In this document: piece after piece, positions 9,983 to 33,288 of the stretch
Numbering within the stretch: the stretch's first letter is position 1
Layout of the letters: every line of letters begins with the position of its first letter
NCBI GenBank assembly: GCA_965228005.1
Contig: CBDDGV010000003.1
Span: 828,244-892,243 of the forward strand
Source of the DNA: Lacipirellulaceae bacterium
Lineage (GTDB): Bacteria > Planctomycetota > Planctomycetia > Pirellulales > Lacipirellulaceae
DNA: 64,000 bases
Reading direction: 5' to 3'
The notes under the pieces: generated by a model
Database searches by the model: none
What the model was told of the DNA's origin: nothing
What the model saw: the letters and a program-made list of their open reading frames with translations, nothing else
Made by a program: the position numbers and the translations under genes

Positions 9983-10433
9983 CGGAGCCCGAGATCGCTC
10001 CCGGGCCCCGGCGTCGTCAACAACAAGAACGGCCTACAGCAGGTTGACCACACGGTCGGCGAGGCCCTTCTCGCCGAGCACGACGTTGAGCTTGCCGCTC
10101 GTGGCGACCTTCTCCAGGACCTCCAGTTCCCGGAGACGCATCAGCGTCGTGTTGTCGGCGAGCAGGCGGGCCGTGTTGGCCTGCGACCGCATCGCGGCCG
10201 TCTCCTCGCGTCGGGCGATCAGGTTGGCCTCGGCGGCCTTCTTGGCCTCCGTGACGCGGTTGAGCAGGACCTTCATGTCGCCCGGCAGGATCACGTCCTT
10301 GACGCCCACCGAAACGACTTCCAGACCCAGCTCACCCGACCGACGACGGACCGACTCGGCGAACTCGTCCGTGACGGCGTCCTTGTCCGTCAGGAACGCG
10401 TCCAGGTCGCGCGTCGCCACGACCGCACGCAGA
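9983..10433 (-). pseudogene. Truncated duplicate of the 3' end of the SPFH/band-7 gene (98% identical to 31385-31853)
   Basis: ORF 10034..10420 translates to the last 128 aa of the 31448..32596 protein. The nucleotide repeat begins at agaaccggagcccgagatcgc at both loci. No N-terminal part is present. Confidence 0.7.
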
Positions 10434-10783
10434 GCCAGCTGAGTGGCCCGTCTCCGAGGGGTTTCAGCTGTTCCACTACTCTGCGTCTACGCATCTGATC
10501 CGTAAGGCGACTGGTCATTCGGAGATGCGATACCTACTGTGATGACTGGTCGAGTATGTGTGGGCAGATCGGTAGTTGCTGCAGAGCGGCACCGGCTGTA
10601 ACGACTCCTCCCTCTCTGGCGGGTCCGAGGCACTCGACGATTGGCCACATTCTTCTGCAATGGTTCGCGTCCTCGATTCAACCGCTTTCAATTCATCGAG
10701 ACCGCCAGAGACAGCTACTACTAGTAGCATTGAAATCAAACAAAGACGCGGCACAAGATGCAAGGAGAGAGGCGTGGATTCGA

Positions 10784-13198
10784 CTACTCGGTTACGAGCT
10801 CTAAGTCAGCGTTAACGCGAAGCTCTTCGCCGGGTTGGATACGAAAGGGTCTGAGCGATGTGCCGTGACGGAGAAGGAAGTGTGCCCCACCCCGAGAGCG
10901 AATCGTCGCCGACGAAAGCCGTCCATCCACCCATTGGACATCGACGTTAAACGCTCCACGCGCGCAGAGCCCAGAGACCGACCCGTCCGGCCACGCCTCG
11001 CTCGGGAGGGCTGGGAGCAAGTGGAGTTCGTAGGGGCCGGTTGGACCGTCGTGCTGAATGTGAGACTGCAGGAGCATCTCCGCGACACCGGCCGTGCCGC
11101 CGAAGTTGCCGTCGATTTGGAATGGCGGGTGGTTGTCGAAGAGGTTCGGGTGGGTGCTCTTCGTCAACAGCGCTTGTAGGTTCTCGTAGGCGAGATCGGC
11201 GTCGCCAAACCGGGCGAAGAAGTTGATGATCCACGCGCGGCTCCACCCGGTATGGCCCCCGCCATGCTGCAGCCGGAAGTCGATCGACTTGCGCGCCGCG
11301 TCCAGCATCTCGGGCGCCTGGAGACGGGTGTATTGCCGACCGGGGTGCACGGCGAACAGGTGGGATAGGTGGCGGTGCCCGGGCTCCGGTTCGCCGAACG
11401 GTCGGCTCCACTCCATGAGCCGACCGTCGTCGCCCACCCGGGGCAGATAGAGCCGCTCGAGCGATGAGCGGATTTCACGGAGCAGCTCGTCGTCCTCAAG
11501 CCCCAGTACCTCAGCCGCATCGAGCGTGGCACTGAACGTCTCCCAAATGATCTGCTGGCTCATGCTCGGCCCCATCGACACCGAGTAATTGCCGCCGTCT
11601 TGGGCCCGATACTTGTTCTCAGGCGAGTTGTCGGGCCCCGCTACGTAGAGGTTGGTCTCGGGGTCCAGCGTCAAATAGTCAACGTAGAAAGCAGACACCT
11701 CTCGCAACAACGGGTAAGCACGGTCGCGGAGAAACTCAGTATCCCCCGTGAAGCGGTAGTGCTCACTAAAGTGAGTTGCGTTCCACCCCAACCCGTGAGG
11801 CCACATGCCCCAGTTCAGTTGTCCGATCAACGAGGTCCAGTGCCAGACATCGCTGGTGTGACCGGCCGCGGACCCGCGTGCGCCAAACATGTTGCGAGCG
11901 GTCTTCCTTCCAGAGGGCAGCAACCGTTCGGTGTACGCAAGAAAGGGTTCGTGCAGTTCGGAAAGATCCGTTAACTCAGCCGGCCAGTAGTTCATCTGCA
12001 GGTTGATGTTCAGGTGGTAGTCGGCGTTCCAGGGGGCCTCCAGGTGCTCGTTCCAGATGCCTTGTAGGTTTGCGGGGAGGTTGCCAGGCCGCGACGATCC
12101 GATCAGCAGGTAGCGGCCGTACTGGAAGTAGAGCGCGTCGAGCCCCGGGTCGGGCGTTCCGCTCTTAACTCGCTCGAGCCTCTCGTCGGTTGGTAGCGCG
12201 TCCATGTCTCCGCTGCCCAGGTCGAGCGACACGCGACGGAACAGCTCCCGGTGCTCGGTGATGTGCCTGCTTAGGAGTTCTCCGAGTCTCTTGCCATCGA
12301 CTCCTGCGAGCGCCTCACCGACTCGATGTTGTGGCAGTTCCGGCGAGCGGCGGTGAGGCGATTGCGGCTGGTAATCCGTTGCAGCAGCGATGTAGAGGGT
12401 CACGCTGTTGGCGTCTGACACTTCGATTGATTCGCCGACGAGTTTCCTATTTCCTCCGTCGGTAACCGTCCGCACAGTCGCCTGCCAGAAGACCCCTGCG
12501 TGTTTGCCCTCATGGCTAGCCTGCCCGGCCATGGTCAGCAGCCCACGGTCGTCGCCGCTGGTGCTGAAACCGGACGTCCGGTCGAGCCGCACGCGGAGAT
12601 TGACTGCATTAGGTTGGTCCGCCTCGATCGAGACGACCAGCACATCGTCAACCGCCGACGCGAAAACCCGGCGGCGGTAGGTTACGCCTTCAATGTCAAA
12701 CGAAGTGGAGGCGATTGCCGAGTCGAGGTCGAGCTGTCGGCGGTACCCCGTCGGCCGGCCTTCGACGCCAAGCAGCGTCAGGCGTAAGTCGCCGAGCGTC
12801 TGGTAGCTTCGCGGCGAGATCCGCTCAGACATGCTCGATTGCAAGAGCCGATGCGCCTCGGCATAGTTGCCGGCGAACCACGCAGCCCGCGACTTGGGGA
12901 GCGCATCGCGCATCGAAGGGTTGTCCTGCGGCGTGGGGGGGCCCGCCCAAACAGATTCCTCATTCATCTGGATGCGCGCCTCGGATACGCCGCCGAAGCA
13001 CATCGCCCCCAGTCGCCCGTTACCGACGGGAAGCGCCTGTGTCCATTGCTCGGCAGGCTTGTCGTACCACAGGCAAGCGCCGGGCCCCGCCAACGCCGAG
13101 CTTACCCAAAAAAGGGTCAAACAAACCCACAGGTAACGGCCGCGTGCGCCCAGCCTGTTGCGAATCAGCTCAGACAACTCAACAAAGCCCCAATTCAA
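10784..13198 (-). CDS. glycoside hydrolase family 95 (alpha-L-fucosidase-like)
   Basis: 804 aa. N-terminal [43 protein letters not shown] matches the conserved GH95 N-terminal motif. Confidence 0.7.
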
Positions 13199-13297
13199 AA
13201 CGCCGCCCTCCTGTGCCGTGTATCAAAACGCGCCGTGAATCGGAACGCGTAGGCAAGAATAGCCCTGCTCAGCCGAGTAGATCATGAGCGTAGACTT

Positions 13298-14545
13298 CTA
13301 CCCATTGTCTTTGTCGAAGCTCGAGAGGTCCCAACGAGTCCGCCATTCGATTCGAAAAGAGCCGTCCCCGTCGAAACGAAGCGGCAGCCAATAGTAGCGG
13401 CCGTCGATGGCGTTCTTCGGTCGCCACTCGTCGAACAAAGCGATGTACGCGTTCTCTGATCCTTTAACCGGGAGCACGTAGGTGCTCTGCCCGCCGAAGG
13501 TCTTCTCCGGCCCTAACCCGTTGTGCGGATTCGTCCCTACACAAGGATTGCCCAGCGGTTTCCAGGGCCCCCAAATCGAGTCCGCCACCGCCGAGCGCGC
13601 CGCGTTTGGCGCCCACCCGGTGCAGCCCGAAGCAAGCAGGTAGTACTTCCCTTGGTGCTTGAATAGCGCCGGCGCCTCGTTGTGCCCGCCCGGCAACACG
13701 CGGACGTAGCGGCCGGTGAAATCGAGGTAGTCGCCCGATAGTTCCGAGATATGCAGCGTGTGATTTTCCTCGGAAGCGTGAACGTGGTAGGCAGTGCCGT
13801 CGTCATCGACAAACAGCGTCATGTCCCTTGCCATCTGACCGCCTTCGTAATCGCGCCGTGTTAGCACTCCTTCGACCACACTGTCGTGGTCGAAGGCGGC
13901 ATCAGAGGACTCGCCCGCCAGTCGGTTCTTCGCGGGTAGATTCTCTGGCCACTTGTCGGCGTTGGGGCGGTGTGATCCGAGATAGCGATAAGGACCGGCC
14001 GCGTCGTCAGCCACAGCGAGCCCCGTGCGGGCGGCCTTGTACCCCCGGCCGCGGAGTTCGAGGTGAAACCACATCACGAACCGCTTGGTCTTGGCGTTGT
14101 AGATGACCTTGGGGCGCTCGATGACGCAGCCAGCGACAATCTCGCTGGACGGGTCGTCCGAGACCGCGAGGGCGACGCCCTGATTGGACCAGTTGTAGAG
14201 GTCGGTCGATCGGTAGCACCGCACCCCGACATTGGCCACGTTGCCCGCTGAGCCCTGCGTCTTGTGCTCACCGAACCAATAGTAGGCCCCTGCGTGCTGC
14301 AGCAACCCGCCGCCATGAGCGTTGATGTGGACGCCGGCCTCGTCTGGCCAGAGCTGACCGGGCAAGAAGGAGTCGCGGGGCGAACCCACGGCGGCGGTTC
14401 CCACATCGCCTTTAGCCGTCTCGGCAGGAGCAGCGCTGTGTAAGCACCAAGTTGGTAGCGTCAACGCCAGTATCCCCACGGCAATACCACGGACGGATGG
14501 TCGAGTCGCCCAGTGACCGTGACGACCTCTGCCTAGGTTTGACAT
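13298..14545 (-). CDS. glycoside hydrolase family 43-like (five-bladed beta-propeller) protein
   Basis: Start chosen at MSNLGRGRH with a signal peptide; the longer ORF would overlap the upstream gene. GH43-like segments AYYWFGEHK and YYLLASGCTGW. Confidence 0.55.
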   Translation of the reverse strand: MSNLGRGRHGHWATRPSVRGIAVGILALTLPTWCLHSAAPAETAKGDVGTAAVGSPRDSFLPGQLWPDEAGVHINAHGGGLLQHAGAYYWFGEHKTQGSAGNVANVGVRCYRSTDLYNWSNQGVALAVSDDPSSEIVAGCVIERPKVIYNAKTKRFVMWFHLELRGRGYKAARTGLAVADDAAGPYRYLGSHRPNADKWPENLPAKNRLAGESSDAAFDHDSVVEGVLTRRDYEGGQMARDMTLFVDDDGTAYHVHASEENHTLHISELSGDYLDFTGRYVRVLPGGHNEAPALFKHQGKYYLLASGCTGWAPNAARSAVADSIWGPWKPLGNPCVGTNPHNGLGPEKTFGGQSTYVLPVKGSENAYIALFDEWRPKNAIDGRYYWLPLRFDGDGSFRIEWRTRWDLSSFDKDNG

Positions 14546-14577
14546 CGACCCCGGACATCCTAGTGAGCCGACCAGCG

Positions 14578-16152
14578 CTACCTCCAGATCTCCCATGTAT
14601 CCGTCCTGAATGGAGTGACGGGCAGAATGCCCTTTTCGGTGTACAGGTTGCACTCCGGATTGTCGCCCCACGCATAACGAACGGCCAGGGGCTCTGTGAC
14701 ATAGGGATGCCACACCTCAATCCTTCCATTGCCCAGGTGGCGGGCAAAAGCTGCTCGCCAGGTCCGGTCGGACCCGCGGATCGCGAATCCAACGATCGGG
14801 TCCCCAGCGTCGCCGTCGACGGTTTGCAAGCCGTTCCCAATGGGCGAGAGAGTCACCACGACCTTGTCCTCCACGATCTTATGGTCGACCAGCCTGGGGC
14901 TCTCGTAATCGAGGTCGTAGCCGTAGTTCTTCGCCAAGGCGATTCGGGCCAGGCGGTTTGCAACCTCGTGCTTATTGCGAGGGTGCACGTCGTCCGAGGC
15001 GCCAAGATCGATGATGACCGCTTGACCCGTGTCCGACAGGCGATCGAGCGTCAAAGTCTGAGCTTCCCGCAACCGAGCCCACGACGAGTCGAAGGACCCT
15101 TCCTGGCGTTCCAGATAAGCGGCGAGCTGCACCCAGTAGAACGAGAGCTTCTCTTGGTTCCATGCGTCCCGCCACGACTGAATCAAGAGCGGGAAGAGTT
15201 CCCGGTACTCTTCCGGCCGCCAGGCATTCGACTCGCCCTGATACCAAAGCACGCCCCGGACCGCGTACCCGGCAATCGGCGCGATGCGTGCTTCGTAGAG
15301 GTTGCCGGGCCTGGCGTTACCCATGGACCAAATGCTAGACGGGAGCGGCCGCTCCTCGGGCTGCCGACCTTCTTGCCGAAGCTTGGTCGACCGTCGCTCC
15401 CAATCAGAGAACGCCTGCTCGAACCAGGCCTTCGCCCCGGCGTCGTCTCCTTCACGGTCTTTCTGGCGCCACTCATCAAGACGGTTGGCGAACGCCGGGT
15501 CGGCTTCAACGATCCGCCGGGGAGTCCATGCTTCGGCAGCGGATCCCCCCCAGGCGTTATCGATCAGGCCGACAGGTACACCGAGCGTTCCTTGCAGACG
15601 CCTCGCAAAGTAGTAGCCGACCGCGGAGAATCGTTGAGCGTTCTCGGGAGTGCATCGTTCCCAAGAGCCTTCGAAGTCGTAGAGCGGCTCTTCCGACCCA
15701 TAGTTGTCCACCGTAAGCAACCGGATCGACGGGTGATCGGCGACGAGCAGTTCGATGTCTCCGTTCATCGCCCCGCCCACCGAGAACTGCATGTTCGATT
15801 GCCCAGAGCAGACCCAGACTTCACCTACGAGAACGTCCGTCAGCTCGATCTGGCCATCACCGTCAACAAGGATGGTCAGCGGCTCGCCCGTCGTGAGAGG
15901 ATCCAGCACGACCCGCCACCTCCCGTCTACTGCGGCGGTGGTCGTGTGGGTCTGATGGTTCTCACCACCGGAGACGGTTACCGTGACCTCGGTTCCCGGC
16001 GCGGCCTTCCCCCATAGCGGGGCCGCAGCGTCACGCTGCAGGACCATGCCGTCGCTGAACAGGTTCGGCATGGAAAGCTCTGCGTGAGCGGCGGAGCAAA
16101 GTACCGCCAGAAAGGCAGGCCACGCAACGTAAGGAAGCCCCAGGAGATTCAT
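14578..16152 (-). CDS. sialate O-acetylesterase family (SASA/DUF303) carbohydrate esterase
   Basis: Signal peptide, then EVWVCSGQSNMQF and WYQGESN motifs characteristic of the SASA esterase fold. Confidence 0.7.
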   Translation of the reverse strand: MNLLGLPYVAWPAFLAVLCSAAHAELSMPNLFSDGMVLQRDAAAPLWGKAAPGTEVTVTVSGGENHQTHTTTAAVDGRWRVVLDPLTTGEPLTILVDGDGQIELTDVLVGEVWVCSGQSNMQFSVGGAMNGDIELLVADHPSIRLLTVDNYGSEEPLYDFEGSWERCTPENAQRFSAVGYYFARRLQGTLGVPVGLIDNAWGGSAAEAWTPRRIVEADPAFANRLDEWRQKDREGDDAGAKAWFEQAFSDWERRSTKLRQEGRQPEERPLPSSIWSMGNARPGNLYEARIAPIAGYAVRGVLWYQGESNAWRPEEYRELFPLLIQSWRDAWNQEKLSFYWVQLAAYLERQEGSFDSSWARLREAQTLTLDRLSDTGQAVIIDLGASDDVHPRNKHEVANRLARIALAKNYGYDLDYESPRLVDHKIVEDKVVVTLSPIGNGLQTVDGDAGDPIVGFAIRGSDRTWRAAFARHLGNGRIEVWHPYVTEPLAVRYAWGDNPECNLYTEKGILPVTPFRTDTWEIWR

Positions 16153-16328
16153 CGGGTGACCTAAAGGAGTGCATTTCGAGGTTGGGAAACGAAGATAGAA
16201 ACAGATCGCGGCAGAGTTGAGCTGAGACGACGCCTGCTCATTGGCCGCAGCGCAGGTTGGGCTTCAAGGAGGGCTTGCGAGTCGAGCAGCCAAACGAAGT
16301 CGAGTGCATCCTATTAAAGCAAATCGAC

Positions 16329-17333
16329 TCAGAAGTCTCCGACCGGGTTGAAATCGGCGCGACCCCCTAGGAATTGGTAAACCGTTTCGAACTCGATATC
16401 CTCGCTCAGGAAGTGAACCGCACCGTCCCCCATCAGGAAGTGCGCACCGCCCGGGTGCGACGAGATGAACCCGTTCGATGCGTTCCAGTTGTTTGGGCCG
16501 CTGCAACGGAATGGCGTCGACTCGTCGCAAGTGTTGGTGTTGATGGGCACCGCCGTGCTCCGACTCCCCTGGCCGTTGTTGCTGCGGAACCAGCCCCTGG
16601 CGGTGTGCACTGAGCACTGTGGCCTGACCTCCCCAAAAAAGATGGTGGAGCTGAGCCCATCCGTGCAGTGACGGAACTCGATCCTGTGGTTGTGTCTCGT
16701 GAAGGGGCCGGAGATCTCGTCAAGATCCATGCCCGCGTTCGGGAACGCTTTCTCCGCGATCAAGTTCCAGTCGGCGATTGGGTACGAGGGCGTGTGAGCG
16801 GGGTTGCAACCTACGAGCAAGTTGGCGTTGGACCCGCTGGAAGCGTTGTAGTTGTGAGCCGCTCGCAGTCTTTCCTCTGCCCCGGCGTTATTCACCGGCC
16901 GCCACATGCCGTCCAGCAGGTCGTCGGACGGACAGATATAGACCGGGATCACAAGCTCGTCGATCGGTTGCCCATTGGGCTGGGTCTGATCTTCAATCGG
17001 CATCGAGAAGTCGATGAAGTCGAAGGCGGCTTGTTGCTCCATGTACGGAAGCAGGAATACGAGCACCGAGCCGCGGCCCTCTTCAACATCGTCGCCCGGG
17101 GGAAGCCTTCCCTGGGTGCCGTGGTAGTTGTGGAGCGCTAAACCGATCTGGCGGAAGTTGCTGATGCAAGCCGAACGGCGCGCCGCCTCGCGTGCCGACT
17201 GCACCGCGGGGAGCAAGAGGGCGACCAGTACACCGATGATTGCGATGACGACGAGGAGTTCAACTAGAGTAAACCCTAGACGGCGGTTGGCGCGTGGTTG
17301 TCGATGAGTCATCTCAAGCGCTCTCGTGTACAT
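16329..17333 (-). CDS. DUF1559 protein with prepilin-type N-terminal cleavage/methylation domain (Planctomycete-specific)
   Basis: N-terminus GFTLVELLVVIAIIGVLVALLLPAVQSAREAARRSAC. Confidence 0.8.
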   Translation of the reverse strand: MYTRALEMTHRQPRANRRLGFTLVELLVVIAIIGVLVALLLPAVQSAREAARRSACISNFRQIGLALHNYHGTQGRLPPGDDVEEGRGSVLVFLLPYMEQQAAFDFIDFSMPIEDQTQPNGQPIDELVIPVYICPSDDLLDGMWRPVNNAGAEERLRAAHNYNASSGSNANLLVGCNPAHTPSYPIADWNLIAEKAFPNAGMDLDEISGPFTRHNHRIEFRHCTDGLSSTIFFGEVRPQCSVHTARGWFRSNNGQGSRSTAVPINTNTCDESTPFRCSGPNNWNASNGFISSHPGGAHFLMGDGAVHFLSEDIEFETVYQFLGGRADFNPVGDF

Positions 17334-17387
17334 TCGTGGTTTCGAAAAGAGTGAGTAAAGAGAATGGTGTCTAACTCAGCAGAAACA

Positions 17388-18518
17388 CTATTCTTCAAAT
17401 CCGGGGATGACCTCGCGGATAAACTCCGTGAGCCGCTCTGCCATAGCTTTTTGTCGTTCTGCCGACGGGTGCGCATCGCCCGTGTAGGGGAAGATCAATC
17501 CGTAGACCCTGGGGTCGTTGTGTTTGCTCCTCAGTTCTTCAACCGCTCCGCGCAAATAACCCGGCCAAGGCGAGTCGTCATCGGTGGCCTGCATGCTGCC
17601 TAGACTGAGGATGATGTGGGCCCCGGGATAACGATCGCGGAGTGTGCGGGCGAAACGGATATAGTTCTCCTTCGCGCCTTCCGCGGTATGAGGTCCCCAA
17701 GCGTCGTTCTGCCCCAGGTTGACGACGACCAATTGGGGGGTCCACTGGTCAAAATCCCAAGGCTTGGACGGCCCGAGTTTGTCGTAATACAGCGTCTGCA
17801 TGTTTCCGCCGAAGCCCCAGACATCAACGTAGAGGCCGATGCCCGAGACCGAGATGCAGTGGTACTCGGCGGCAAGCTCCCGGGCTGTGATGCCCGCGTA
17901 AGCGTAGTAGTTGTCCTTGGCGACGGCGTCGTTCGAGTCGCCCTTCGTAGACGCTACCGAGTGGCCGGCGGTAATCGAGTCCCCATAGAATTCGATCCTC
18001 CTCTTGGGGCGCTCCGGCGGCGGCAGAAGCTGCTTTCCCGCGTCGAGCATGAAACCGCGGAACGCCGTTTTGCCTTCGGCGGTCTCGGTCCGCTTGAACA
18101 GCGTCACGGTGTGCACAGTGTCGCTGAGGCCCTCGGCGACAAGGTAACTCGACTGGCCGGGATTTAGATCAAACAGGGCCGGGGGACCGCCGTCGACGAT
18201 GGCATAGAGGTAGTTGTCGCCGTAATCGTGCAGGGTCGCGGTAATCGACTCCCCTTCGAACCGGGCCGTAACTTCGCTACCAGGCCACCAGAGAGTAGGC
18301 GCCTTCGGGTCCTCGTGATCAATACGTCCCGTGTAGCGGATGTGAGGGTGATCAGCCTCAATGACCGTCACGGCAAAGGCCGGATGGCAAAGGCAAGCCG
18401 TGCACATCAAGAACAGGCTCATGCCCCGCCAGGCCTTGGCGGCAAAGCCGCACCGATAGCGAGTCACTCCTGCTGTCGGAGCGTGAGCAGCTTCGTAGTA
18501 GCGTGGCAAAACGATCAT
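17388..18518 (-). CDS. SGNH/GDSL hydrolase family esterase
   Basis: FYGDSITAGH (GDS block) and DGIHP-like C-terminal block. True start is probably the internal Met before the signal peptide MSLFLMCTACLC. Confidence 0.55.
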   Translation of the reverse strand: MIVLPRYYEAAHAPTAGVTRYRCGFAAKAWRGMSLFLMCTACLCHPAFAVTVIEADHPHIRYTGRIDHEDPKAPTLWWPGSEVTARFEGESITATLHDYGDNYLYAIVDGGPPALFDLNPGQSSYLVAEGLSDTVHTVTLFKRTETAEGKTAFRGFMLDAGKQLLPPPERPKRRIEFYGDSITAGHSVASTKGDSNDAVAKDNYYAYAGITARELAAEYHCISVSGIGLYVDVWGFGGNMQTLYYDKLGPSKPWDFDQWTPQLVVVNLGQNDAWGPHTAEGAKENYIRFARTLRDRYPGAHIILSLGSMQATDDDSPWPGYLRGAVEELRSKHNDPRVYGLIFPYTGDAHPSAERQKAMAERLTEFIREVIPGFEE

Positions 18519-18563
18519 GCTATGCTGACAAACTCTTCACTAACTAATCGGAGAAAGCTCTCG

Positions 18564-19034
18564 ATGGAACCGAACCACTCTTTGTTGTTCCTGCGGCGAC
18601 CAAGCATGTCGATAATGTGGTCCTTTCTAGGTCTGGCAATGCTTGGCTGCGGCTCGGGCAGCGTTTCTGTTACTGGGACGGTAACCCTTGACGGCTCTCC
18701 ACTTGCTGAGGCTTTCGTGTCATTCACTCCGGATGACGGCGGTCGGCCGGTATCAATAACAACGAATGACTCTGGAGAGTTTGCCTTCGACGACGGGACG
18801 CCTCCTGGACTATTGGCCGGGGTGTATAAAGTGACTGTTAGCAAGACCGAGAGACTTGGCTTGCCCCCTGGAATCGAGGAAGGCGGGCCGATCCCCGCGG
18901 ACTTCGACCCGGCCAGCGCCAAGGAGCACTGGGTCACGCCGCGAAAGTACGCAAAAACTAGCACCTCCGGATTAACCGCGAACGTGGAACGAGGGATGTC
19001 GCCAGTGGCATTAAATCTGATCTCGGATGAGTAG
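18564..19034 (+). CDS. small secreted/lipoprotein with a carboxypeptidase-regulatory-like beta-sandwich
   Basis: ATG at 18564 preceded by ggagaaag. LGCGSGS lipobox-like. Resembles the small proteins that accompany DUF1559 genes (compare 29337..29765). Confidence 0.4.
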   Translation: MEPNHSLLFLRRPSMSIMWSFLGLAMLGCGSGSVSVTGTVTLDGSPLAEAFVSFTPDDGGRPVSITTNDSGEFAFDDGTPPGLLAGVYKVTVSKTERLGLPPGIEEGGPIPADFDPASAKEHWVTPRKYAKTSTSGLTANVERGMSPVALNLISDE

Positions 19035-19053
19035 CGTCCCGGGCGCCGTCTGA

Positions 19054-21441: not shown

Positions 21442-21900
21442 TTGCTCACTCGTTTCCTCTGAGGGCTCCGCGCATGCAACTGGTACTCCGTGCCATTCCC
21501 GGCCTCCGTGCCGGACTACCTCAATCAGTCAAAGGAGTGCTGATTCGATCAATGCCCTTCAGTTCGCTACCACGCCCCAAGCGAGGAATTGGACTCAAAT
21601 CCTGGTCCGAATGACTTTCTCGACGCGGACGCATAATCAACGTAACAGGGGTGCGGTCCCCCGCACGCCTGTTTGCGATCTACAAACCGAATCAAACTTT
21701 ACGCCCGAATATCGACCCGATTTTGGGCAAGCTCAGGAAACTTTGCGTTCTATTTCTTTTGTTTCCACAATGGAAGCAATCGTGCGGTAGCAGATAGCCG
21801 GCAACTCGCCGCAGTCGTTCTCCTTTCGATTGCCCAGAGTGAGTCCAGCAGCCGTCTTTTCATTTGCCTCTCGTTCTCATCTCCAACTCGCAGGCACGCA

Positions 21901-22974: not shown

Positions 22975-23105
22975 CCGTGCAGTGCGTGGAGTGTCGGCGG
23001 GCGTACGGGGCAGTACGCTCTGCCATGCAGCCGCAGCGTCGGCCGTGATTGGTTGGCTCTGCTCGAAGAGTTCTTTTCCGTTTTCTCCACAGTTAGGTCT
23101 GTCTA

Positions 23106-24002: not shown

Positions 24003-24124
24003 GCACAGCGTCGCACGGCGCAGTCGCAAAACGACTCTGGGAAACATGTTCCCAGAGTCGTTTTTTTGGCATCCGGTTTCCCCACGCGGCGATGATGCCC
24101 CAATCCTGAAGACAACGAGCTCCA

Positions 24125-26608
24125 TTGGCCACGCCGATGATAACCAACGGAAAATCGAAGAAGATCCTGCTGATCGGCTGGGACGCCGCGGATTGGAAGG
24201 TCATCAACCCGCTGCTCGACGCCGGGAAGATGCCCGCACTCGAGGGGATGATCAACGGCGGCGTGATGGGCAATCTAGCCACCATCCACCCGATCCTCTC
24301 GCCCATGCTCTGGACCTCGATCGCCACCGGCAAGCGCGCCTTCAAGCACGGCATCCATGGCTTTACCGAGCCAACAGCGGACGGTTCGGACATCCAGCCG
24401 ATCACCAACCTGTCTCGGAAGACGAAAACGTTCTGGAACATCTTCAACCAGAACGGGATGCGGGGGCACATCGTCGGTTGGTGGCCCAGCAGCCCGGCGG
24501 AACCGATCAACGGCGTGATGGTCTCGAACCACTTCCAACGCATGGCGTCGATCGATCCCGACGAGCCGTGGCCGATGGCCACGGGCACCGTGCACCCCCC
24601 GGAGATGCAGGAGGAACTCGAGGAGCTTCGGTTCCACCCGGCTTGGCTCGACGAACGACAGGTGCGGCCGTTCATCCCTCATGCGGAAGAGGTCGATCAA
24701 GACAAAGACAGCCGCATGGCGTCGTGCATGAAGATGATCGCCGAGTGCACGAGCATCCAAGCAGCTGCGACCCACCTGTTGCAGACGCAACCCTGGGACT
24801 ACGCGGCGGTCTACTTCGACGCGATTGACCACTTCTGCCACGGGTTCATGAAGTACCACCCGCCGCGGCAGGAGTTCATCTCCGAGCAGGACTTCCGGCT
24901 CTACTCAAACGTGGTCGAAGCCGGCTACCGCTTCCACGACATGATGCTGGCCACGCTGCTGACCCTGGCCGGCGAGGACACCACGGTGATCCTGATCTCC
25001 GACCACGGCTTCCACCCAGACCACATGCGGCTCAAGAGCATGCCCAACGAGCCCGCCGCCCCCGCCGCGGAGCACCGTGACCTGGGGATTATCGTCATGA
25101 AAGGCCCCGGGGTCCGGGAGGACGAGAGGATCTACGGGGCGAGCCTATTGGATATCTGCCCGACGTTGCTGACCGCCGCAGGGCTGCCGGTGGGGGAAGA
25201 CATGGACGGCAACGCATTGGTGCAGGCCTGGGAGGAACGACCCGAGGTGCAGCGCATCCCCTCGTGGGAGGACGTTGCGGGCGACACCGGCCAGCACCCG
25301 CCCGACACGAAGCTCGACCCCCGCGAGTCGCAACAGGCGATCCAGCAGTTGGTCGAGCTCGGCTACATCGACAAGCCCGCAGGCGACAAGCAGCAGGCGA
25401 TCGCGCAGACCGTCGGCGAACTGAACTTCAACCTAGCACAAGCCTATATCGACGCCGACCGCCACGCCGAGGCCGTCGAGATCCTGGCCGAGCACTACGA
25501 GAAAGACCCGACCGACACGCGCGTCGGGATGCGGCTTATCTTCTGCTACCGCGCGCTAGGGCGGATCGATGAGATGAAGCCCCTGCTCGAGCGTGTCAAG
25601 AGGCATCGGGTCGAGAAGGTGACGGAGTCTGCGAGAATGCTCGCGGCCCTCGTCGACAAGATCTCCCTTCGCTCAGAAGACGCTCCGCGACGATCGAAGA
25701 AAGACGGCAAAGAAGAAGGCGCCGGCCCTCCGACTCCTCGGGACCCTTCGGAAGACGCCGAACTGGCCGCCGCGATGGCCGCCGCCGAACGGCTTGCCGC
25801 GATCGAGGGTGACGAGGACGCCTCCGACGAGCAGAAGCTGAAAGCCCGCAAGGAACTCGCCGAGAAGCGACAATCGATCTTCCAGAAGGCGGTGCAGAAG
25901 GCCACCGACACAGAGAAGCGGCAGATACAGATGTTGCTCAAGGAGTCGCAGCACAACCCCTATTCGTTCGACTACCTCGACGGCTACGTCTTGCTCGCGG
26001 AGGGAAAGGTAGAGGAATCGCTGGAGTGCTTCCGACGCGCCGAAGAGGTCGAGCCGAATCGCCCGTGGCTCCCCATCCAGATCGGCGAAGCCTACCAGCA
26101 ACTCAATCGGTGGGAGGAGGCGGAGACCAGCTTCCTACGCGCCATCGAATTAGACCCCGAGAACGCCTCGGCTCATTCCGGGCTGGCGAGGACCTACCTG
26201 GGGCTCTCCCAGAACCAAGAAGCGGCCGAATCCGCGCTCACGGCCGTCAGCCTGCAACACTTCGCTCCCTACGCCCACTACCTGCTCGGGTCCGCGCTGC
26301 ACCGCCTCGGCGAAGTCGATCGGGCCGTCGAAGCTCTCAGCACGGCCGTGAGCATCAATCCCAACTTCAGCGAAGCACACGGCCGGTTGGCGTTGCTCTA
26401 CGAACGTCAACTCAACGACCCCGAGAAGGCGACCTACCACCAGAAGTGTGTCAGCCAGGCCGCTGCGAAAGGGCCTTCGTCCGCGATGCCTACTCCCGTC
26501 GTCGGCATCGCCGCATCGGCCAAAGACAAACAGGCCCTGTGGGACAGCATCACGGATTTAGTGACCGAACGCCCGCGCTCCGACCGGGGCTCGACCTCTC
26601 CGGCGTGA
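24125..26608 (+). CDS. alkaline-phosphatase-superfamily phosphodiesterase/nucleotide pyrophosphatase fused to C-terminal TPR repeats
   Basis: KILLIGWDAADW metal-site motif typical of type I phosphodiesterase/NPP. C-terminal half holds TPR-like repeats (AYIDADRHAEAVEIL..., AYQQLNRWEEAETSFLRAIELDP). Confidence 0.6.
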   Translation: MATPMITNGKSKKILLIGWDAADWKVINPLLDAGKMPALEGMINGGVMGNLATIHPILSPMLWTSIATGKRAFKHGIHGFTEPTADGSDIQPITNLSRKTKTFWNIFNQNGMRGHIVGWWPSSPAEPINGVMVSNHFQRMASIDPDEPWPMATGTVHPPEMQEELEELRFHPAWLDERQVRPFIPHAEEVDQDKDSRMASCMKMIAECTSIQAAATHLLQTQPWDYAAVYFDAIDHFCHGFMKYHPPRQEFISEQDFRLYSNVVEAGYRFHDMMLATLLTLAGEDTTVILISDHGFHPDHMRLKSMPNEPAAPAAEHRDLGIIVMKGPGVREDERIYGASLLDICPTLLTAAGLPVGEDMDGNALVQAWEERPEVQRIPSWEDVAGDTGQHPPDTKLDPRESQQAIQQLVELGYIDKPAGDKQQAIAQTVGELNFNLAQAYIDADRHAEAVEILAEHYEKDPTDTRVGMRLIFCYRALGRIDEMKPLLERVKRHRVEKVTESARMLAALVDKISLRSEDAPRRSKKDGKEEGAGPPTPRDPSEDAELAAAMAAAERLAAIEGDEDASDEQKLKARKELAEKRQSIFQKAVQKATDTEKRQIQMLLKESQHNPYSFDYLDGYVLLAEGKVEESLECFRRAEEVEPNRPWLPIQIGEAYQQLNRWEEAETSFLRAIELDPENASAHSGLARTYLGLSQNQEAAESALTAVSLQHFAPYAHYLLGSALHRLGEVDRAVEALSTAVSINPNFSEAHGRLALLYERQLNDPEKATYHQKCVSQAAAKGPSSAMPTPVVGIAASAKDKQALWDSITDLVTERPRSDRGSTSPA

Positions 26609-27159
26609 TCACCATCGTCACCGGCCTGCCAAGGTCCGGCACCTCGATGCTGATGCAGATGCTCACCGCGGGAGGGCTGCCCGCGTTCACCGACGGCGAA
26701 CGCGCCGCCGACGAAGACAACCCCAAGGGCTACTTTGAACTGGAGCGGGTGAAGCGAATCCGCAGCGACGCGTCCTGGATCTCCGACGCGCGCGGCAAGT
26801 GCATCAAAGTCATCGCCCAGCTACTCCCGATGCTGCCCAAGCAGCGCTACCGGATCATCTTTGTCGATCGCGACCTGGACGAGGTCGTCCGCTCGCAGCG
26901 TGCGATGCTCGACCGCTCGGGCAAAGCTGGCGCAAAGCTGTCCGACGAGCAGCTCAAGGACGCCTTCACGAAGCAGACCCGGGCCATCGGCGAGATGCTC
27001 GAGGCGACGCAGATTCCCGTGATCAAAGTGCGACACCGAGACTGCATTCACGAGTCGGCGACCGTGGCGACCAAGATCAACCAGTTCTTAGGCAGCGGGC
27101 TCAACGAAGAGGCGATGGCCGCCGCAGTAGATCTCGATCTGTACCGGCAACGGGCGTGA
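26605..27159 (+). CDS. sulfotransferase family protein (P-loop PAPS-binding)
   Basis: GTG start at 26605 overlaps the upstream TGA (GTGA). Encodes VITIVTGLPRSGTSML (5'-PSB loop) and RIIFVDRDLDEVVRSQ (3'-PB-like). Confidence 0.55.
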   Translation: MITIVTGLPRSGTSMLMQMLTAGGLPAFTDGERAADEDNPKGYFELERVKRIRSDASWISDARGKCIKVIAQLLPMLPKQRYRIIFVDRDLDEVVRSQRAMLDRSGKAGAKLSDEQLKDAFTKQTRAIGEMLEATQIPVIKVRHRDCIHESATVATKINQFLGSGLNEEAMAAAVDLDLYRQRA

Positions 27160-27223
27160 ACGCGTACATTGACGTTCCCGGCTGAAACCAGGTCGTTCTG
27201 CGCTGTGCAACGGTAGGAGTTCC

Positions 27224-29230
27224 ATGAAACGAGAGCGTCGGCTGCAGCCGCCCCGAGTCAAAACCGACCAGCTTAGGCAATGCCTGGTAGTCCCGGGTTC
27301 GTGGCCTTGTGAGGTGCTCCTGGCCGCTGTTCTGTTGCTCGGCGCCGGTTCCCACCAGTCGTCCGCCGACGTATTCACAAACGTCGCGGAAGCGACCAAC
27401 GACGGGTACGAGCTGATCTACACGCTGCCGATCCCCGATTCGGCTTCGTTCAGCTCCACCAGCGTCATCCCGTTCTTGGTAGACAACTCCGCCAGCTTCG
27501 CCAACACGCCGTTTGATCGCGTGGCTTACTACTTGGAACTAGCCGGCGGCCAAGGACTCACTTACGCGTACACCTCTATGGACGCCTTTTCGACCAACCT
27601 CAGCGATATCGGTTTGCCAGCCGATGGGCAGCTTTTCCAGCAGAACGTGTCGAACCTAAACGTCTTCTCTAACTCAACCTCGTTAACGACCGGCATCGGG
27701 ATTTCCACGGGAAACATCGAGTTCTGGAACACCAACTACGGCACCGCGAACAGCGCGGGTGTTCCCGGCGCGAACGACGGGACGTACGACTTTGGAGACA
27801 GCGTCTCCGGCAACGGGAGCTACTCGTCGTTCCAGGTGCACAACCACGGAGCCGGGGAGACGATCATCGCGTACAACCAGTGGGCCGGATTCAACCCGAA
27901 TGCGGACAGCGACCTGGGCATTGGGAACAGACCCGTCGGGAACCCCGATTGGACGTTCTCGCAGAGCGCCGGGTCGTACTCGGTCAAGAACCTGCAGGTC
28001 TTGATCAGACCGTCGGGCCTTTCGGTCGACTCTTCCCTGCAGCGCGCAATCTTCCAACGCAACTACCAGAACTCCGCGACGATCCCCCTCCAGGGCCAGG
28101 TGGACGCCTCGGCGGCCGTCTCCATTGAGGCCCGGGCCGTCCCGCGCGCCGGCTACTCGGGGGTCGCGACCGGATGGGTCACGGTCGATTCCAGCCTTCA
28201 GTCCGGCTCATGGGACGGGGCGCTTGATCTGCTGGCGGGTTGGTACGACATCGAAGTCCGGTCGATCGATGGGGGCGGCAACGTCGTTGACCAGCAGTCC
28301 GTCAATCGCGTCGGCGTTGGCGAAGTCTTCGTGGTCGCCGGGCAGTCCAACTCCGCGAACTACGGCAACCCGACGCTCTCCGCGCAGGACGACCGCGTCT
28401 CTGCGTTCGATCTAACGAACTGGCAGAAGGCCAACGACCCCATGCCAGTAGCCGACGGCTCAGGTGGTTCTCCTTGGCCGGCGCTCGGCGATATGCTCAC
28501 CGAGGAGTGGGACGTTCCCGTAGGGTTCGTGTCGGTCGGGTGGGGCGGAACCTCCGCCGCGCAATGGGAGCCCGGGGCCACCGGGCCGGACGCCGAGCCG
28601 CTCTACAACCGACTTCAAGACGCGCTAACCGCCCTCGGCCCCGACGGCGCCCGAGCCGTACTTTGGCACCAAGGTGAGGCTGACAACGCCTTCAACACGT
28701 CTGCGGTTGCATACGAAGCTTCGCTCGAGACGATCATCGCACAGTCGCGTGTCGACGCGGGTTACGACGTGCCGTGGGGAATCGCGCTGGCCTCATTCAT
28801 TTCACTGGGCAACCCCAACGACCCCAATATCACCGCCGCCCAGCAGAAGGTCGTCGACGACGACCCGCTAAACTTCCTCGGAGCCGCGACAGACGACCTT
28901 GGCGGCCCGGCATGGCGGTGGGACGGCATCCACTTCAACGAGCCCGGTCTCCGCGAACACGCGCAGCGCTGGTTCGACCAACTCCTAGCGTCACTTGAGT
29001 TCCCCACTCCGACCCCCGGCGACTACGACGGCGACGGAGACACGGACATCGCAGACCTCATGAGATGGCAAAGAAACGACGGATCAGCCGCAGGCCTGGA
29101 TGCCTGGCGGACCGGAGCCGGGGCGGGCGGCACATCAACGCAATCCGCCTCCGCCGTACCAGAACCACTCAGTATTTGGGGCATTGTCGGCGCCGCCCTT
29201 TGCCTGGCACATGACAGGCGGCGCCGCTAA
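27224..29230 (+). CDS. SASA-type carbohydrate esterase with PEP-CTERM anchor
   Basis: VFVVAGQSNSANYG and LWHQGEADN motifs. C-terminus GDYDGDGDTDIADLMRWQRNDGSAAG ... VPEPLSIWGIVGAALCLAHDRRRR. Confidence 0.65.
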   Translation: MKRERRLQPPRVKTDQLRQCLVVPGSWPCEVLLAAVLLLGAGSHQSSADVFTNVAEATNDGYELIYTLPIPDSASFSSTSVIPFLVDNSASFANTPFDRVAYYLELAGGQGLTYAYTSMDAFSTNLSDIGLPADGQLFQQNVSNLNVFSNSTSLTTGIGISTGNIEFWNTNYGTANSAGVPGANDGTYDFGDSVSGNGSYSSFQVHNHGAGETIIAYNQWAGFNPNADSDLGIGNRPVGNPDWTFSQSAGSYSVKNLQVLIRPSGLSVDSSLQRAIFQRNYQNSATIPLQGQVDASAAVSIEARAVPRAGYSGVATGWVTVDSSLQSGSWDGALDLLAGWYDIEVRSIDGGGNVVDQQSVNRVGVGEVFVVAGQSNSANYGNPTLSAQDDRVSAFDLTNWQKANDPMPVADGSGGSPWPALGDMLTEEWDVPVGFVSVGWGGTSAAQWEPGATGPDAEPLYNRLQDALTALGPDGARAVLWHQGEADNAFNTSAVAYEASLETIIAQSRVDAGYDVPWGIALASFISLGNPNDPNITAAQQKVVDDDPLNFLGAATDDLGGPAWRWDGIHFNEPGLREHAQRWFDQLLASLEFPTPTPGDYDGDGDTDIADLMRWQRNDGSAAGLDAWRTGAGAGGTSTQSASAVPEPLSIWGIVGAALCLAHDRRRR

Positions 29231-29336
29231 GCGGATGAGGCTGGAGCCGCTAGAGGAACGATGCGGCACGATCAAGAACGCAAGCCCAGTGCTTTGCCCA
29301 CGCAGGACATTCCCAAGGAAGCTATCCGATCGTCCG

Positions 29337-29765
29337 TTAAGGAGACAGGTTGAGCTGCAAACCTTCTCCCTCCCCCACAGTCACCGTCAAGCCAGAGCTG
29401 TCCACGCTCTCGTACTTCTCTGGCACTTGGAGAAACGTCCCTTCAAGTTTGCGCATCGGCATGGCCCTACCGCCACGGCTCTCTTTGCCCGCCGCTGCCA
29501 TCCCGGCGTACATCGAAGTGTTCACAGCAACGCGGTACTCTCCGGGCTTAACCGCGTAAACGGTAAAGACCCCGCCTACTCTCAGGTCACTCGATACCTG
29601 CGGGCCCCCTTCCACCGGCGCAAGCAACACCATGCCAATCTCGAGCGGCTGGCCATTGAGCGTGGCTTGGCCGTTGACATCGATTTGTTCCTGGGCATTT
29701 GGGCCACACCCCGCGCAGAGGGCGGCGGTCACGACAACCAGGGAAAGCTGGAAACAAGAGTGCAT
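29337..29765 (-). CDS. small lipoprotein (carboxypeptidase-regulatory-like domain) co-transcribed with a DUF1559 gene
   Basis: AALCAGCG lipobox. Lies 33 nt downstream of the DUF1559 gene on the same strand. Confidence 0.45.
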   Translation of the reverse strand: MHSCFQLSLVVVTAALCAGCGPNAQEQIDVNGQATLNGQPLEIGMVLLAPVEGGPQVSSDLRVGGVFTVYAVKPGEYRVAVNTSMYAGMAAAGKESRGGRAMPMRKLEGTFLQVPEKYESVDSSGLTVTVGEGEGLQLNLSP

Positions 29766-29797
29766 AGCTGCGATTGATCGAATGTAGGGTCTAGCGG

Positions 29798-30805
29798 TCA
29801 GTTCAGCGCGTCCTGGATGACTTGCCCGTCACCCGGAAGGATCAGATGGCTCCAGGGAATGATGTCGATGGTATCGCTGACGGTTCTGACGGCCCCGTCC
29901 CCCATCCCGACAAGAACGATGCCGGCGGAGTGGCCGATCGCCCGGTACTCTGCCCACCGGCATTCGCCCGGGTTAGGTGTCGAGATCGGCGGGAAGAACT
30001 GGTTGTATTCGATCTCCTCAGGGTTGTCCGTGAAGGCAATGTTCGTCCTGGCAAATACCGGCCAGTAGCGATCGTCCGCGGTGTAGCCCCACGAGTTGCC
30101 AAACGTGTCTGTGTTGTTCGGCTCACTGGCGGGGCCGCAGCCCATCTGACGCTCGGCAACAAAAACCGTGTTTGACGTGCCGTCCAGAATCTGCCGCAGA
30201 CGCCGGTCGCCGGCCCCGTTCCTCCACTCCCAGATGTCCTCGGGAGCGAACTCCGGGTCGCCGAACACCTGCCAGTTGCACCCGTAACTCGCCAGCGCCA
30301 CATCGACAGGGCGCCTCCACATCCAGCCGATGTTGCAACCGTCCACAAACACGCCGTCCTGGGGAGCGCTGGCATCATTCGGAGCGATCAGCACAGAGAG
30401 AGGAACGCTCATCGCCGCTTGCGTGTCGTTAATCGGCCCTAAGACACTCTTAGATGTGTTCCCGAAATCCGAAATGCTCTGACCGATCGCCCCCTGCTCA
30501 AAAAAAGGCAGCAGGCTGAAGAAGAAGGTCGTGTCGTCTGAGTTGTACGGCCCGGAGTAGTTGTCAACCCACCAAGCCGCATAGGCGGGGGGGAGGACGG
30601 AGTATTGGTTCTCCGCATTCAAAACGGACAGCATGATCTGCCTAAGATTGTTGGAGCTCTGCGTTCGTCGTGCTGCCTCTCGTGCGGCTTGCACTGCCGG
30701 CAGGAGCAGCCCCACGAGGACTCCAATAATCGCGATCACTACGAGTAGTTCTACGAGGGTGAATCCTGGGCTTGTCTTTCGCTCGATTCGATTCGGCATA
30801 GTCAT
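29798..30805 (-). CDS. DUF1559 prepilin-like protein
   Basis: GFTLVELLVVIAIIGVLVGLLLPAVQAAREAARR. Confidence 0.8.
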   Translation of the reverse strand: MTMPNRIERKTSPGFTLVELLVVIAIIGVLVGLLLPAVQAAREAARRTQSSNNLRQIMLSVLNAENQYSVLPPAYAAWWVDNYSGPYNSDDTTFFFSLLPFFEQGAIGQSISDFGNTSKSVLGPINDTQAAMSVPLSVLIAPNDASAPQDGVFVDGCNIGWMWRRPVDVALASYGCNWQVFGDPEFAPEDIWEWRNGAGDRRLRQILDGTSNTVFVAERQMGCGPASEPNNTDTFGNSWGYTADDRYWPVFARTNIAFTDNPEEIEYNQFFPPISTPNPGECRWAEYRAIGHSAGIVLVGMGDGAVRTVSDTIDIIPWSHLILPGDGQVIQDALN

Positions 30806-31447
30806 GTACCCGCGTTGAGGGGATAGGAGCCGCTTGTGACGAAGCCGCTAAGGGGCGCTGCCGACGGCTGTTCGGCCTACAAGTCCGCCTAGGTAATCCC
30901 AGAGAATCCAGAAGAGAGTCAGTAGAGAATATGAAGAGAGTCTATGAGAATTACTCGAAGTGCTCCGGCATCTCCTAATTCGGGGCCATTCTCGCCGGCC
31001 CCGCCACCAACCCGGGGCGCCACGGTGTCCGGTTCTTCTCGCATCATGGATGGCTCAAGCACCCGACCCTCTCGCTTCTTGCGGTAAGCCACTTATGAAG
31101 TACTGTGGCTCGAGCCACCATGCTGGGACGATGTCCCGCTGAAGCCTTCCGCAAGCAACCACATGCGGAGCAGAGAATTGGAGAGAAATAGCCACAGCGG
31201 CGAAGAATTGATCGCTTCCTTCCGGAAACGCTCTGCAGGACTCCGTCGTCGGCACAAGTGTTAGGGATCGTAGGAGCCTATAGAATTGACATGGACGGCG
31301 CCCCCGCCTTTTCTACTGATAGACTGTCCGGGACGGGCCGCGCAGTGGGAAGGCCGTCGTTTCCCCGTTTCGTTCATCAACGGAGAGCGAAAGAACCGGA
31401 GCCCGAGATCGCTCCCGGGCCCCGGCGTCGTCAACAACAAGAACGGC

Positions 31448-32596
31448 CTACAGCAGGTTGACCACACGGTCGGCGAGGCCCTTCTCGCCGAGCACGACGT
31501 TGAGCTTGCCGCTCGTGGCGACCTTCTCCAGGACCTCAAGTTCCCGGAGACGCATCAGCGTCGTGTTGTCGGCGAGCAGGCGGGCCGTGTTGGCCTGCGA
31601 CCGCATCGCGGCCGTCTCCTCGCGTCGGGCGATCAGGTTCGCCTCGGCGGCCTTCTTGGCCTCCGTCACTCGGTTGAGCAGGACCTTCATGTCGCCCGGC
31701 AGGATCACGTCCTTGACGCCCACCGAAACGACTTCCAGACCCAGCTCACCCGACCGGCGACGGACCGACTCGGCGAACTCGTCCGTGACGGCGTCCTTGT
31801 CCGTCAGGAACGCGTCCAGGTCGCGCGTCGCCACGACCGCACGCAGAGCCAGCTGCGCCTCGCGGTACAGCGACTGCTTCGCGCCGTCGGCCACGGTGAC
31901 CGCCTGCCGCGCGTCGACCACGCGGTAGGTAACCACGGCGTTCATCCGCAGCGTGACCTTGTCGGCGGTCATGATTTCCTGACCGGCGACATCGAGGGTC
32001 TGCTCACGGAGGTCGACCTCGACCACCTTCGCGTCGGCTGTGCGCCGCCAGTACGCGTACTGGCCCGGCGGCAGCGTCTCGACGAAGCTGCCGTCGTAGA
32101 ACACGACGCCGACCGAGTTCCGCGCAACCGTGCAGATGTCGAGCACCTGCGAGGCGTACGGGCTGCCGAGCACACGGTTGAGGTCCTTGTGACGGAAGCG
32201 GACCTCGCCGGCGTCGACGACCTCGACACGCACGTCCTTCTCGCCGGTCCAGTACGCGTACAGGCCCGGCGGCAGGATGTGGCTGAAGCGGCCCTCGATC
32301 CAGACCAGGCCGCGGTCGTTGTCCTTGAGGTCCACGACCACCGCCTCGCCTTCCAGGGCGCCGCTCTTCACGATCGCCTCGAGTTCGTCGTGCGCCAGCC
32401 AAGGGTCGCGACGCGACACGACATCGACCCGCACCTTCCACGACGGGGCCTTCAGCCAGTGCCGCCCGCGGGTGAGCAGGCCCTGGAACTCGCCGTCTCG
32501 GAAGTAGAGGCCTACTTCGTAGCTACGAATCTTGACTCGCTTGTAAAACGTCATGGGAGGCCTCCTTTCTGTGGCCAAGGGGTTGGGTGCACTCAA
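31448..32596 (-). CDS. SPFH/band-7 (HflC/stomatin-like) family protein
   Basis: 382 aa with an SPFH-like central region. N-terminal repeated GxYAYW motifs. The 3' 400 nt are duplicated at 9983-10433. Confidence 0.7.
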   Translation of the reverse strand: MSAPNPLATERRPPMTFYKRVKIRSYEVGLYFRDGEFQGLLTRGRHWLKAPSWKVRVDVVSRRDPWLAHDELEAIVKSGALEGEAVVVDLKDNDRGLVWIEGRFSHILPPGLYAYWTGEKDVRVEVVDAGEVRFRHKDLNRVLGSPYASQVLDICTVARNSVGVVFYDGSFVETLPPGQYAYWRRTADAKVVEVDLREQTLDVAGQEIMTADKVTLRMNAVVTYRVVDARQAVTVADGAKQSLYREAQLALRAVVATRDLDAFLTDKDAVTDEFAESVRRRSGELGLEVVSVGVKDVILPGDMKVLLNRVTEAKKAAEANLIARREETAAMRSQANTARLLADNTTLMRLRELEVLEKVATSGKLNVVLGEKGLADRVVNLL

Positions 32597-33265: not shown

Positions 33266-33288
33266 TTCGTTGTCACTGAAAGTGTCAG

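Follow-up and report, generated by a model that had tools for sequence, protein, structure and literature searches.

Single-crossover integration of the Campbell type is familiar from suicide-plasmid merodiploids and from lambda-dgal heterogenotes. At the icd/icdC locus of E. coli K-12, the element e14 (and likewise phage 21) supplies its target gene with a new 3' end and leaves the displaced C-terminal part as a pseudogene (PMC13626634). Decayed integrative and conjugative or integrative and mobilizable elements (ICEs, IMEs), which keep the attachment sites attL and attR and have lost their integration and transfer genes, are known as cis-mobilizable elements (CIMEs) (PMC5704250). Furthermore, long tRNA arrays have been reported in Planctomycetes and are regarded as horizontally spread (PMC4758250, PMC8421152). 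In this study, we analyzed a stretch of 64,000 nucleotides (the window) from a Lacipirellulaceae bacterium of the Planctomycetota (GenBank assembly GCA_965228005.1, contig CBDDGV010000003.1, positions 828,244 to 892,243 of the forward strand), in which about 21 kb of carbohydrate-use and regulatory genes lie between two copies of the 3' end of a slipin (band-7, SPFH) gene. This layout is a familiar footprint of island insertion, and it is unusual solely for the absence of an integrase. We put at about 0.5 the probability that the segment (10442-31390) is an accessory carbohydrate-use and regulatory island that was inserted via a Campbell-type crossover by homologous recombination.

A duplicated slipin 3' end and the DNA it encloses

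A repeat search and pairwise alignment revealed a single long direct repeat in the window, with one copy at 9977-10441 and the other at 31391-31855. The copies are 465 bp long with a start-to-start spacing of 21,414 bp, and they differ by five mismatches and no indels (98.9% identity). The homology between them ends abruptly at either edge. A match of 465 bp at 99% identity within 64 kb cannot be chance. An earlier reading of this DNA, made from the sequence alone (the sequence-only reading), had described the repeat as 9983-10433 and 31385-31853; the repeat itself was correctly seen, and its edges are corrected here. The 128 codons assigned to it in that reading are those of the GTG-started open reading frame (ORF) 10034-10420 alone, whereas the repeat holds the last 135 codons of the gene.

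Each copy contains these 135 slipin codons, the stop codon (10034-10036 in the distal copy, 31448-31450 in the proximal copy) and 57 nt of 3' flank with a terminator hairpin, so that direct repeats holding the 3' end of the target gene are present at both ends of the segment. The terminator is a 14-pair G+C-rich hairpin followed by a T-tract, located at 10012-9981 in the distal copy, and the similarity of both copies is lost within this T-tract. The proximal copy (31391-31855, minus strand) provides the intact slipin gene with its working 3' end and its terminator. In the distal copy (9977-10441, minus strand), which has a Pfam Band_7 match on ORF 10034-10420, the similarity begins abruptly within the gene at 10441. 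This copy, truncated at an arbitrary position within the gene, is a dead 3' fragment. The sole truly novel joint of the locus lies between 10441 and 10442.

We then compared the two tails base by base. The mismatches at 10124, 10226, 10253, 10256 and 10343 are all third-position and synonymous, and the same 135 residues are read from both copies. Random changes in the slipin tail would be synonymous in about 27-32% of cases, and the probability of five out of five synonymous changes under neutrality is 0.002-0.003. Because all five differences are synonymous, the copies would have diverged while each was part of a working gene, that is, as two alleles. Each tail allele is also a mixture of states found in relatives. 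This suggests that the tails are two functional alleles of a closely related population, which is not strictly proved, as later allelic recombination might mimic the pattern. Copies derived from a donor and a recipient allele are what a Campbell-type integration would leave, and the same caveat, mimicry by later allelic conversion, applies to this comparison.

The intact slipin gene (31448-32554, minus strand, 368 aa) was identified by its Pfam Band_7 match and its homologs. A start at the TTG codon at 32596 had been proposed; the ATG at 32554 is the likelier start, with GGAGG upstream and with homologs of 367-368 aa that align over the full length. These homologs, named "slipin family protein" in their sources, show 73-91% identity at 99-100% coverage and number thousands across Lacipirellulaceae and other Pirellulales. 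Slipin is a core gene of Pirellulales. The gene stays full length despite the insertion, and its G+C content at third codon positions (GC3) of 0.905 is not compositionally foreign. No slipin tail was present in the phage records searched, and the plasmid records yielded distant full-length slipins only.

To find relatives, genome contigs were scanned with the window's slipin, which gave 80 loci with identities of up to 81%. Loci of relatives are referred to below by L numbers. In L006, a Pirellulales metagenome-assembled genome (MAG) whose slipin is 77% identical to the window's, we found a full slipin and, downstream of it, one low-GC3 gene for a 1363-aa TPR/DUF3857/transglutaminase protein; a slipin-tail copy of 298 bp and 94% identity comes next. 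As in the window, this tail copy ends just past the terminator hairpin. The inner end of the repeat differs, with about 86 codons in L006 versus 135 in the window. No recombinase was found among the Pfam-scanned ORFs of L006, and no other locus among the 80 has a slipin-tail repeat within 10 kb. L006 is a second, independent instance of the slipin-tail layout. In both instances, the duplicated homology exceeds 200 bp (465 bp in the window, 298 bp in L006) and one copy is cut arbitrarily.

The intervening DNA (10442-31390) is 20,949 bp long. Its gene list in the sequence-only reading was borne out by Pfam, which found GH95, GH43, CE2, two SASA esterases, two DUF1559 proteins, an ECF sigma/anti-sigma pair, PEP-CTERM paralogs, a phosphodiesterase-TPR protein and a sulfotransferase. 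According to Pfam, the cargo operon at 10784-21441 (minus strand, GC3 0.61-0.77) encodes an ECF sigma factor, a FecR/NPCBM anti-sigma factor, an unknown ORF, a CE2/GDSL esterase, a DUF1559 protein, a SASA esterase, GH43 and GH95, and it now terminates at the distal copy of the slipin terminator. The rest of the cargo (21673-30805, plus strand, Pfam) comprises two PEP-CTERM paralogs, which were also detected as paralog repeats in the repeat search, the phosphodiesterase-TPR protein, the sulfotransferase, the second SASA esterase and an unknown ORF; the last gene of this group, the second DUF1559 (29798-30805, Pfam), lies on the minus strand. The junction DNA at 10442-10783 is non-coding, with no family match in any reading frame, and its GC of 0.547 versus 0.615 for the segment agrees with the lower GC noted there before. 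The gap between the cargo and the proximal repeat (30806-31390) is also non-coding, with a GC of 0.58.

The GC3 of the cargo genes is mostly 0.72-0.77, compared with 0.81-0.90 for the flanking core genes, and the cargo is compositionally foreign. The idea that the cargo is native DNA continuous with the left flank was rejected, as the GC3 differs and the tRNA and slipin fragments intervene. We found no synteny of the cargo and flank genes with any of the 80 relative loci. A metagenome scan with the second SASA esterase protein gave matches of at most 47% identity, with no synteny and no slipin nearby. The spacer, junction and gap DNA have no match within the window or the relative loci.

Two further features of the window were noted. 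ARAGORN calls a tRNA-Ala(ggc) at 28529-28613, within the second SASA ORF; Rfam does not list it, and the call is probably spurious. To the left of the repeats, an 843-aa ORF (6397-8928) without a family match contains two blocks of 57-bp (19-aa) tandem repeats, at 6641-7339 and 7640-8566.

The tRNA-array block, its downstream site and the tRNA-Val repeat

In Adhaeretor, Lacipirellula, Bythopirellula, many MAGs and the window, slipin is located just downstream of a long same-strand tRNA array, which typically ends in tRNA-Cys. The conserved block in the window begins at the slipin terminator (31391) and reaches about 38920, some 230 bp upstream of tRNA-Phe. Within it, the array and its conserved leader of about 230 bp occupy 33005-38920 on the minus strand, with 36 ARAGORN tRNAs at 33193-38682 and one Rfam-only tRNA at 33005-33067. 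Long arrays (L-arrays) are defined by at least 20 tRNA genes on the same strand at a density of at least 2 per kb, and the window has 36 tRNAs in 5.5 kb. The Rfam scan returned tRNAs only, and 26 of the array tRNAs also exceed the Rfam gathering score.

The DNA past the slipin terminator is different in every relative. The change is sharpest between strains L002 and L003, which match at 99.4% over 4.3 kb of array and slipin and have no similarity left right past the terminator. The closest slipin relatives (86-91% identical) are on contigs shorter than 10 kb, and their downstream DNA is unrelated. In L001, slipin is followed by a TIR/TPR gene and by a tyrosine integrase 4.3 kb past slipin, with no att-like repeat and no slipin-tail duplication. 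In L090 and L092, a prophage with a gpA terminase and an HNH endonuclease (HNH-AP2) is located directly past the slipin terminator. A walk of about 32 kb through the L090 prophage revealed no slipin-tail repeat, and the far end lies beyond the stretch covered. Pieces of the block itself were also found downstream: L002 has array fragments and internal slipin codons about 3 kb downstream of slipin (7132-7656), and L025 contains, past its complete slipin, an incomplete duplicate (11854-12700) that covers the 5' part of tRNA-Cys, the leader and slipin codons 1-42.

The prophage was seen at L090 11100-21092, L092 770-10765, L142 and L143; it is longer than 32 kb, and the two IMG/VR records in which it starts at the slipin terminator are of the same sequence. 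In L152, whose slipin is 90% identical, a DUF6807 gene (80-1159) lies between tRNA-Cys and slipin, and the block is therefore variable on that side too.

Several members of the window's array deserve mention. The stand-alone tRNA-Ile(gat) at 49397-49471 has a duplicate in the array, at 38223-38295. At 38300-38391, the place of tRNA-Pro(tgg) in relatives, lies a 92-nt "tRNA-???" whose anticodon is called as four nucleotides (ttgg), and calls of about 90 nt were made for tRNA-Ala(ggc) at 35061-35150 and tRNA-Arg(tct) at 34850-34940. All three of these unusually long members are below the Rfam gathering score, and the long Ala(ggc) member also occurs in L004, L007 and L151. The array is interrupted by a 240-aa ORF at 36322-37044 (plus strand, GC about 0.50), which has no Pfam, NCBIfam or PHROGs match and resembles a small insertion.

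We searched the locus for recombinases. No integrase, transposase or excisionase was found among the ORFs in 9.7-40 kb with Pfam, NCBIfam and PHROGs. Stop-free six-frame pieces of 10442-10783 and 30806-31390, together with the longest pieces beside tRNA-Val, matched no Pfam family even at E = 1; the spacer at 9789-9976 gave one 48-aa piece, which was outside this junction-frame scan. The segment has no element-encoded tyrosine or serine recombinase near one end. An element that had supplied a replacement 3' end was proposed in the sequence-only reading. Its layout is supported by the intact gene, the cargo, the displaced 3' fragment, the allelic tails, the foreign cargo composition and L006. 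A description of the cargo as a self-mobile element is not supported, as there is neither a mobility gene of the kinds searched nor a remnant of one in the junction DNA. Furthermore, we surveyed 108 ORFs of medium size in the 8 kb that follow slipin at 67 related loci, and a tyrosine recombinase was found at only one of them (1/67), namely the L001 protein (Phage_integrase).

The same survey found an RtcB tRNA ligase at two loci, an RlaP RNA-repair protein at two and rve_3 transposases at three. The gene rtcB has been tied to the regulation of a cyanobacterial tRNA array (PMC8421152).

A second, shorter repeat surrounds the slipin repeats. A copy of the 3' half of tRNA-Val(cac) at 9745-9788 (minus strand) forms an att-type direct repeat with 39725-39768, identical at 44 of 44 nt, and the intact tRNA-Val(cac) is located at 39726-39800 (minus strand, Rfam 65.5 bits). 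The identity begins in the anticodon loop and runs to the tRNA 3' end, and the intact tRNA stands at one end of the bracketed DNA, as in tRNA-gene islands. It is a true att-type signature, of the form that an integrase classically leaves at a tRNA gene. Between the tRNA-Val fragment and the distal slipin tail lies a spacer of 188 bp (9789-9976) without an ORF and without similarity to the fetched sequences. On the other side, L085 (GCA_039190745.1), the relative closest to the right flank, shows about 85% DNA identity to the window from 52382 down to 39719, and its synteny stops at the tRNA 3' end. Directly after the same tRNA-Val(cac), L085 carries a different island (12641-14017) with a tyrosine integrase, a DUF1580 protein and a NERD/kinase gene, and the tRNA is therefore a live attachment site in the lineage.

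Next to the window's tRNA-Val there is no integrase; a NUDIX hydrolase gene (39055-39483, minus strand, GC3 0.77) adjoins instead, between the array and tRNA-Val and outside the conserved block. The bracketed 30 kb contains no integrase, yet it includes the family-conserved tRNA-array/slipin block, and a simple tRNA-island model is therefore not established. The proposed nesting within a tRNA-Val island is thus supported in part, by the att-form repeat and the L085 synteny break, and is opposed by the conserved block inside the bracket and the missing integrase. We sought tRNA-fragment repeats bracketing the array block in relatives as well, and they were found in the window only. A nested layout is the simplest reading of the sequence, and it would put the tRNA array inside the tRNA-Val bracket. 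Such a placement is not absurd, because published surveys regard these arrays as horizontally spread.

In the left-flank relatives L086 and L089, synteny with the window is lost at the isomerase gene. After this sugar isomerase, L086 encodes a plasmid-type RP-C replication protein and a VWA protein (13489-14799), probably an integrated element.

Entry of the island and competing explanations

An intact gene, a cargo and a truncated tail are the product of one crossover with a tail-bearing circle, whether by an integrase or by homologous recombination. According to the explanation we favor, entry would have required one reciprocal crossover within the last 0.46 kb or so of the core slipin gene. 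The imported DNA probably came from the chromosome of a closely related strain, as a circularised piece with the cargo already placed directly behind the slipin terminator. This import would have brought its own slipin tail and terminator, and the crossover would have occurred between the imported copy and the resident gene, through host homologous recombination rather than a site-specific integrase. The products would be an intact mosaic slipin, the cargo and, next to the former downstream DNA (spacer and tRNA-Val fragment), a truncated tail of the resident type. The 465-bp repeats could then allow the island to loop out and to re-enter other strains. The sequences show the structure itself, the allelic tails, the foreign cargo, the lack of recombinases, the strain-level break at the terminator and the second case; that the intermediate was a circle, that RecA acted and what the donor was are inferred.

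Homologous recombination is favored because no recombinase or remnant is present here and none was found in the scanned L006 ORFs, because the homology spans hundreds of bp with inner ends that differ between the two cases, and because integrases are rare downstream of slipin. It is also favored by the outer end of the repeat, which coincides with the point where strains cease to be alike. This coincidence is expected if the import was a piece of another strain's chromosome with the cargo already at the hot spot. The block fragments downstream of slipin in L002 and L025, which do not derive from the 3' end, point in the same direction, as they are easier to reconcile with imports that carry homology than with an integrase specific for the 3' end.

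Several observations weigh against this explanation. No empty site or circular junction was found in the collections searched, which hold no conspecific genome. A duplicated gene 3' end on both sides of an island is classically the work of an integrase, as with e14 at icd (PMC13626634), and some relatives carry an integrase island (L001) or a prophage (L090/L092) shortly past slipin. The synonymous differences might be later, arising by allelic recombination that replaced part of the working gene. Finally, the formation of the first circle with a slipin tail is speculative.

An e14-like element whose attP contained the slipin tail, and whose integrase was since deleted or acts in trans, would leave a CIME-like remnant with the same layout as icd-e14-icdC (PMC13626634), and such decay into a CIME has been described (PMC5704250). 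We regard this origin as possible, if on the whole unlikely. The tyrosine integrase and the prophage that adjoin slipin in L001 and L090/L092 speak for it, as does the integrase-type tRNA-Val att repeat about 190 bp away, at a tRNA that carries an integrase in L085. However, L001 and L090 lack a slipin-tail duplication, neither an integrase gene nor a remnant of one exists in 9.7-40 kb, and the Pfam-scanned L006 ORFs contain no recombinase. The unequal inner repeat ends (135 versus about 86 codons) and the single tyrosine recombinase among the 67 loci also speak against an integrase, and repeats of 465 and 298 bp far exceed usual att cores.

A local duplication of the slipin tail, by staggered-break fill-in or as a segmental event, with foreign DNA lodged between the copies and later allelic conversion, is improbable in our estimation. 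It would require two separate rare events, and it accounts neither for the compositionally foreign cargo nor for the fact that both cases end exactly where the strain-conserved sequence ends. It does fit the clustering of the five mismatches in 220 bp (10124-10343), which resembles a short conversion tract, and other local partial duplications occur at the locus, as in L025. We consider it highly improbable that the locus is an assembly chimera of two strains joined at a shared slipin tail. The source looks metagenome-type (a 1.65-Mb contig) and the tails are allelic, as in co-occurring strains, but a join of this kind would leave no novel joint inside the gene between 10441 and 10442, and an assembly in which 57-bp tandem arrays and a 36-tRNA array are resolved has no difficulty with a repeat of 465 bp. 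Moreover, the same layout is present in L006 on a separate 6.75-Mb contig.

Other origins were considered and rejected. The synonymous-only differences rule out a fresh in-place duplication and, being allelic, a collapsed assembly repeat. A transposon-type target duplication is much shorter than 465 bp, and a transposase is missing.

A Campbell-type entry would have added a polysaccharide-degradation and regulation module beside a core gene without damage, in a phylum that has received little study. The case suggests that such modules may dock without an integrase, given long homology to a conserved gene, and if the repeats permit loop-out, the module would be transferable among strains. The DNA just past the slipin terminator, next to the conserved tRNA array, is a strain-level hot spot that deserves attention in comparisons of Pirellulales. 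The slipin-tail case alone leaves current understanding unchanged. A broader proposal, which we think doubtful, is that the array/slipin block acts as a portable landing pad, with integrase-less islands moving between Pirellulales strains by carrying a piece of this highly conserved block and recombining with the resident copy, and with the block itself inside the tRNA-Val att bracket. If true, it would be a first concrete hint of how long tRNA arrays move, riding on tRNA-targeted islands.

Comparison with known systems

The slipin locus resembles e14 in its insert-supplied 3' end and its displaced fragment, and the icd/icdC tails, like the slipin tails, differ mainly at synonymous positions (PMC13626634). 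Unlike the slipin island, e14 encodes its own integrase and excises site-specifically; the slipin cargo is metabolic and regulatory, not phage-derived, and is without a recombinase. The icd repeat of e14 is also much shorter than the 465-bp slipin repeat. We do not file the slipin island as e14-type, because it lacks the self-encoded recombinase that defines this type.

Its integrase-less state, with att-like repeats kept and mobility genes absent, fits the definition of a CIME (PMC5704250). Unlike a CIME, the island has repeats of hundreds of bp with variable inner ends, and no cognate integrase-bearing element on the slipin tail was found; of the candidates, the L001 integrase and the L090 prophage, neither has a slipin-tail repeat.

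The tRNA-Val(cac) 3'-part repeat, the intact tRNA at one end and the synteny break are shared with tRNA-gene genomic islands, from which the window differs in having no integrase and in the family-conserved array/slipin block within the bracket. With 36-37 same-strand tRNA genes in 5.7 kb, the array itself is comparable to the known L-arrays. Unlike horizontally spread arrays, it is syntenic with slipin across many genera and looks vertically inherited.

In its workings the locus is like a Campbell-type merodiploid. Campbell-type integration likewise duplicates several hundred bp of homology around the insert and leaves one copy truncated where the cloned or captured fragment ends; no site-specific enzyme is necessary, and the insert can loop out. 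Unlike the laboratory or phage-derived constructs in which it is familiar, the slipin case is natural and involves a chromosomal island of 21 kb.

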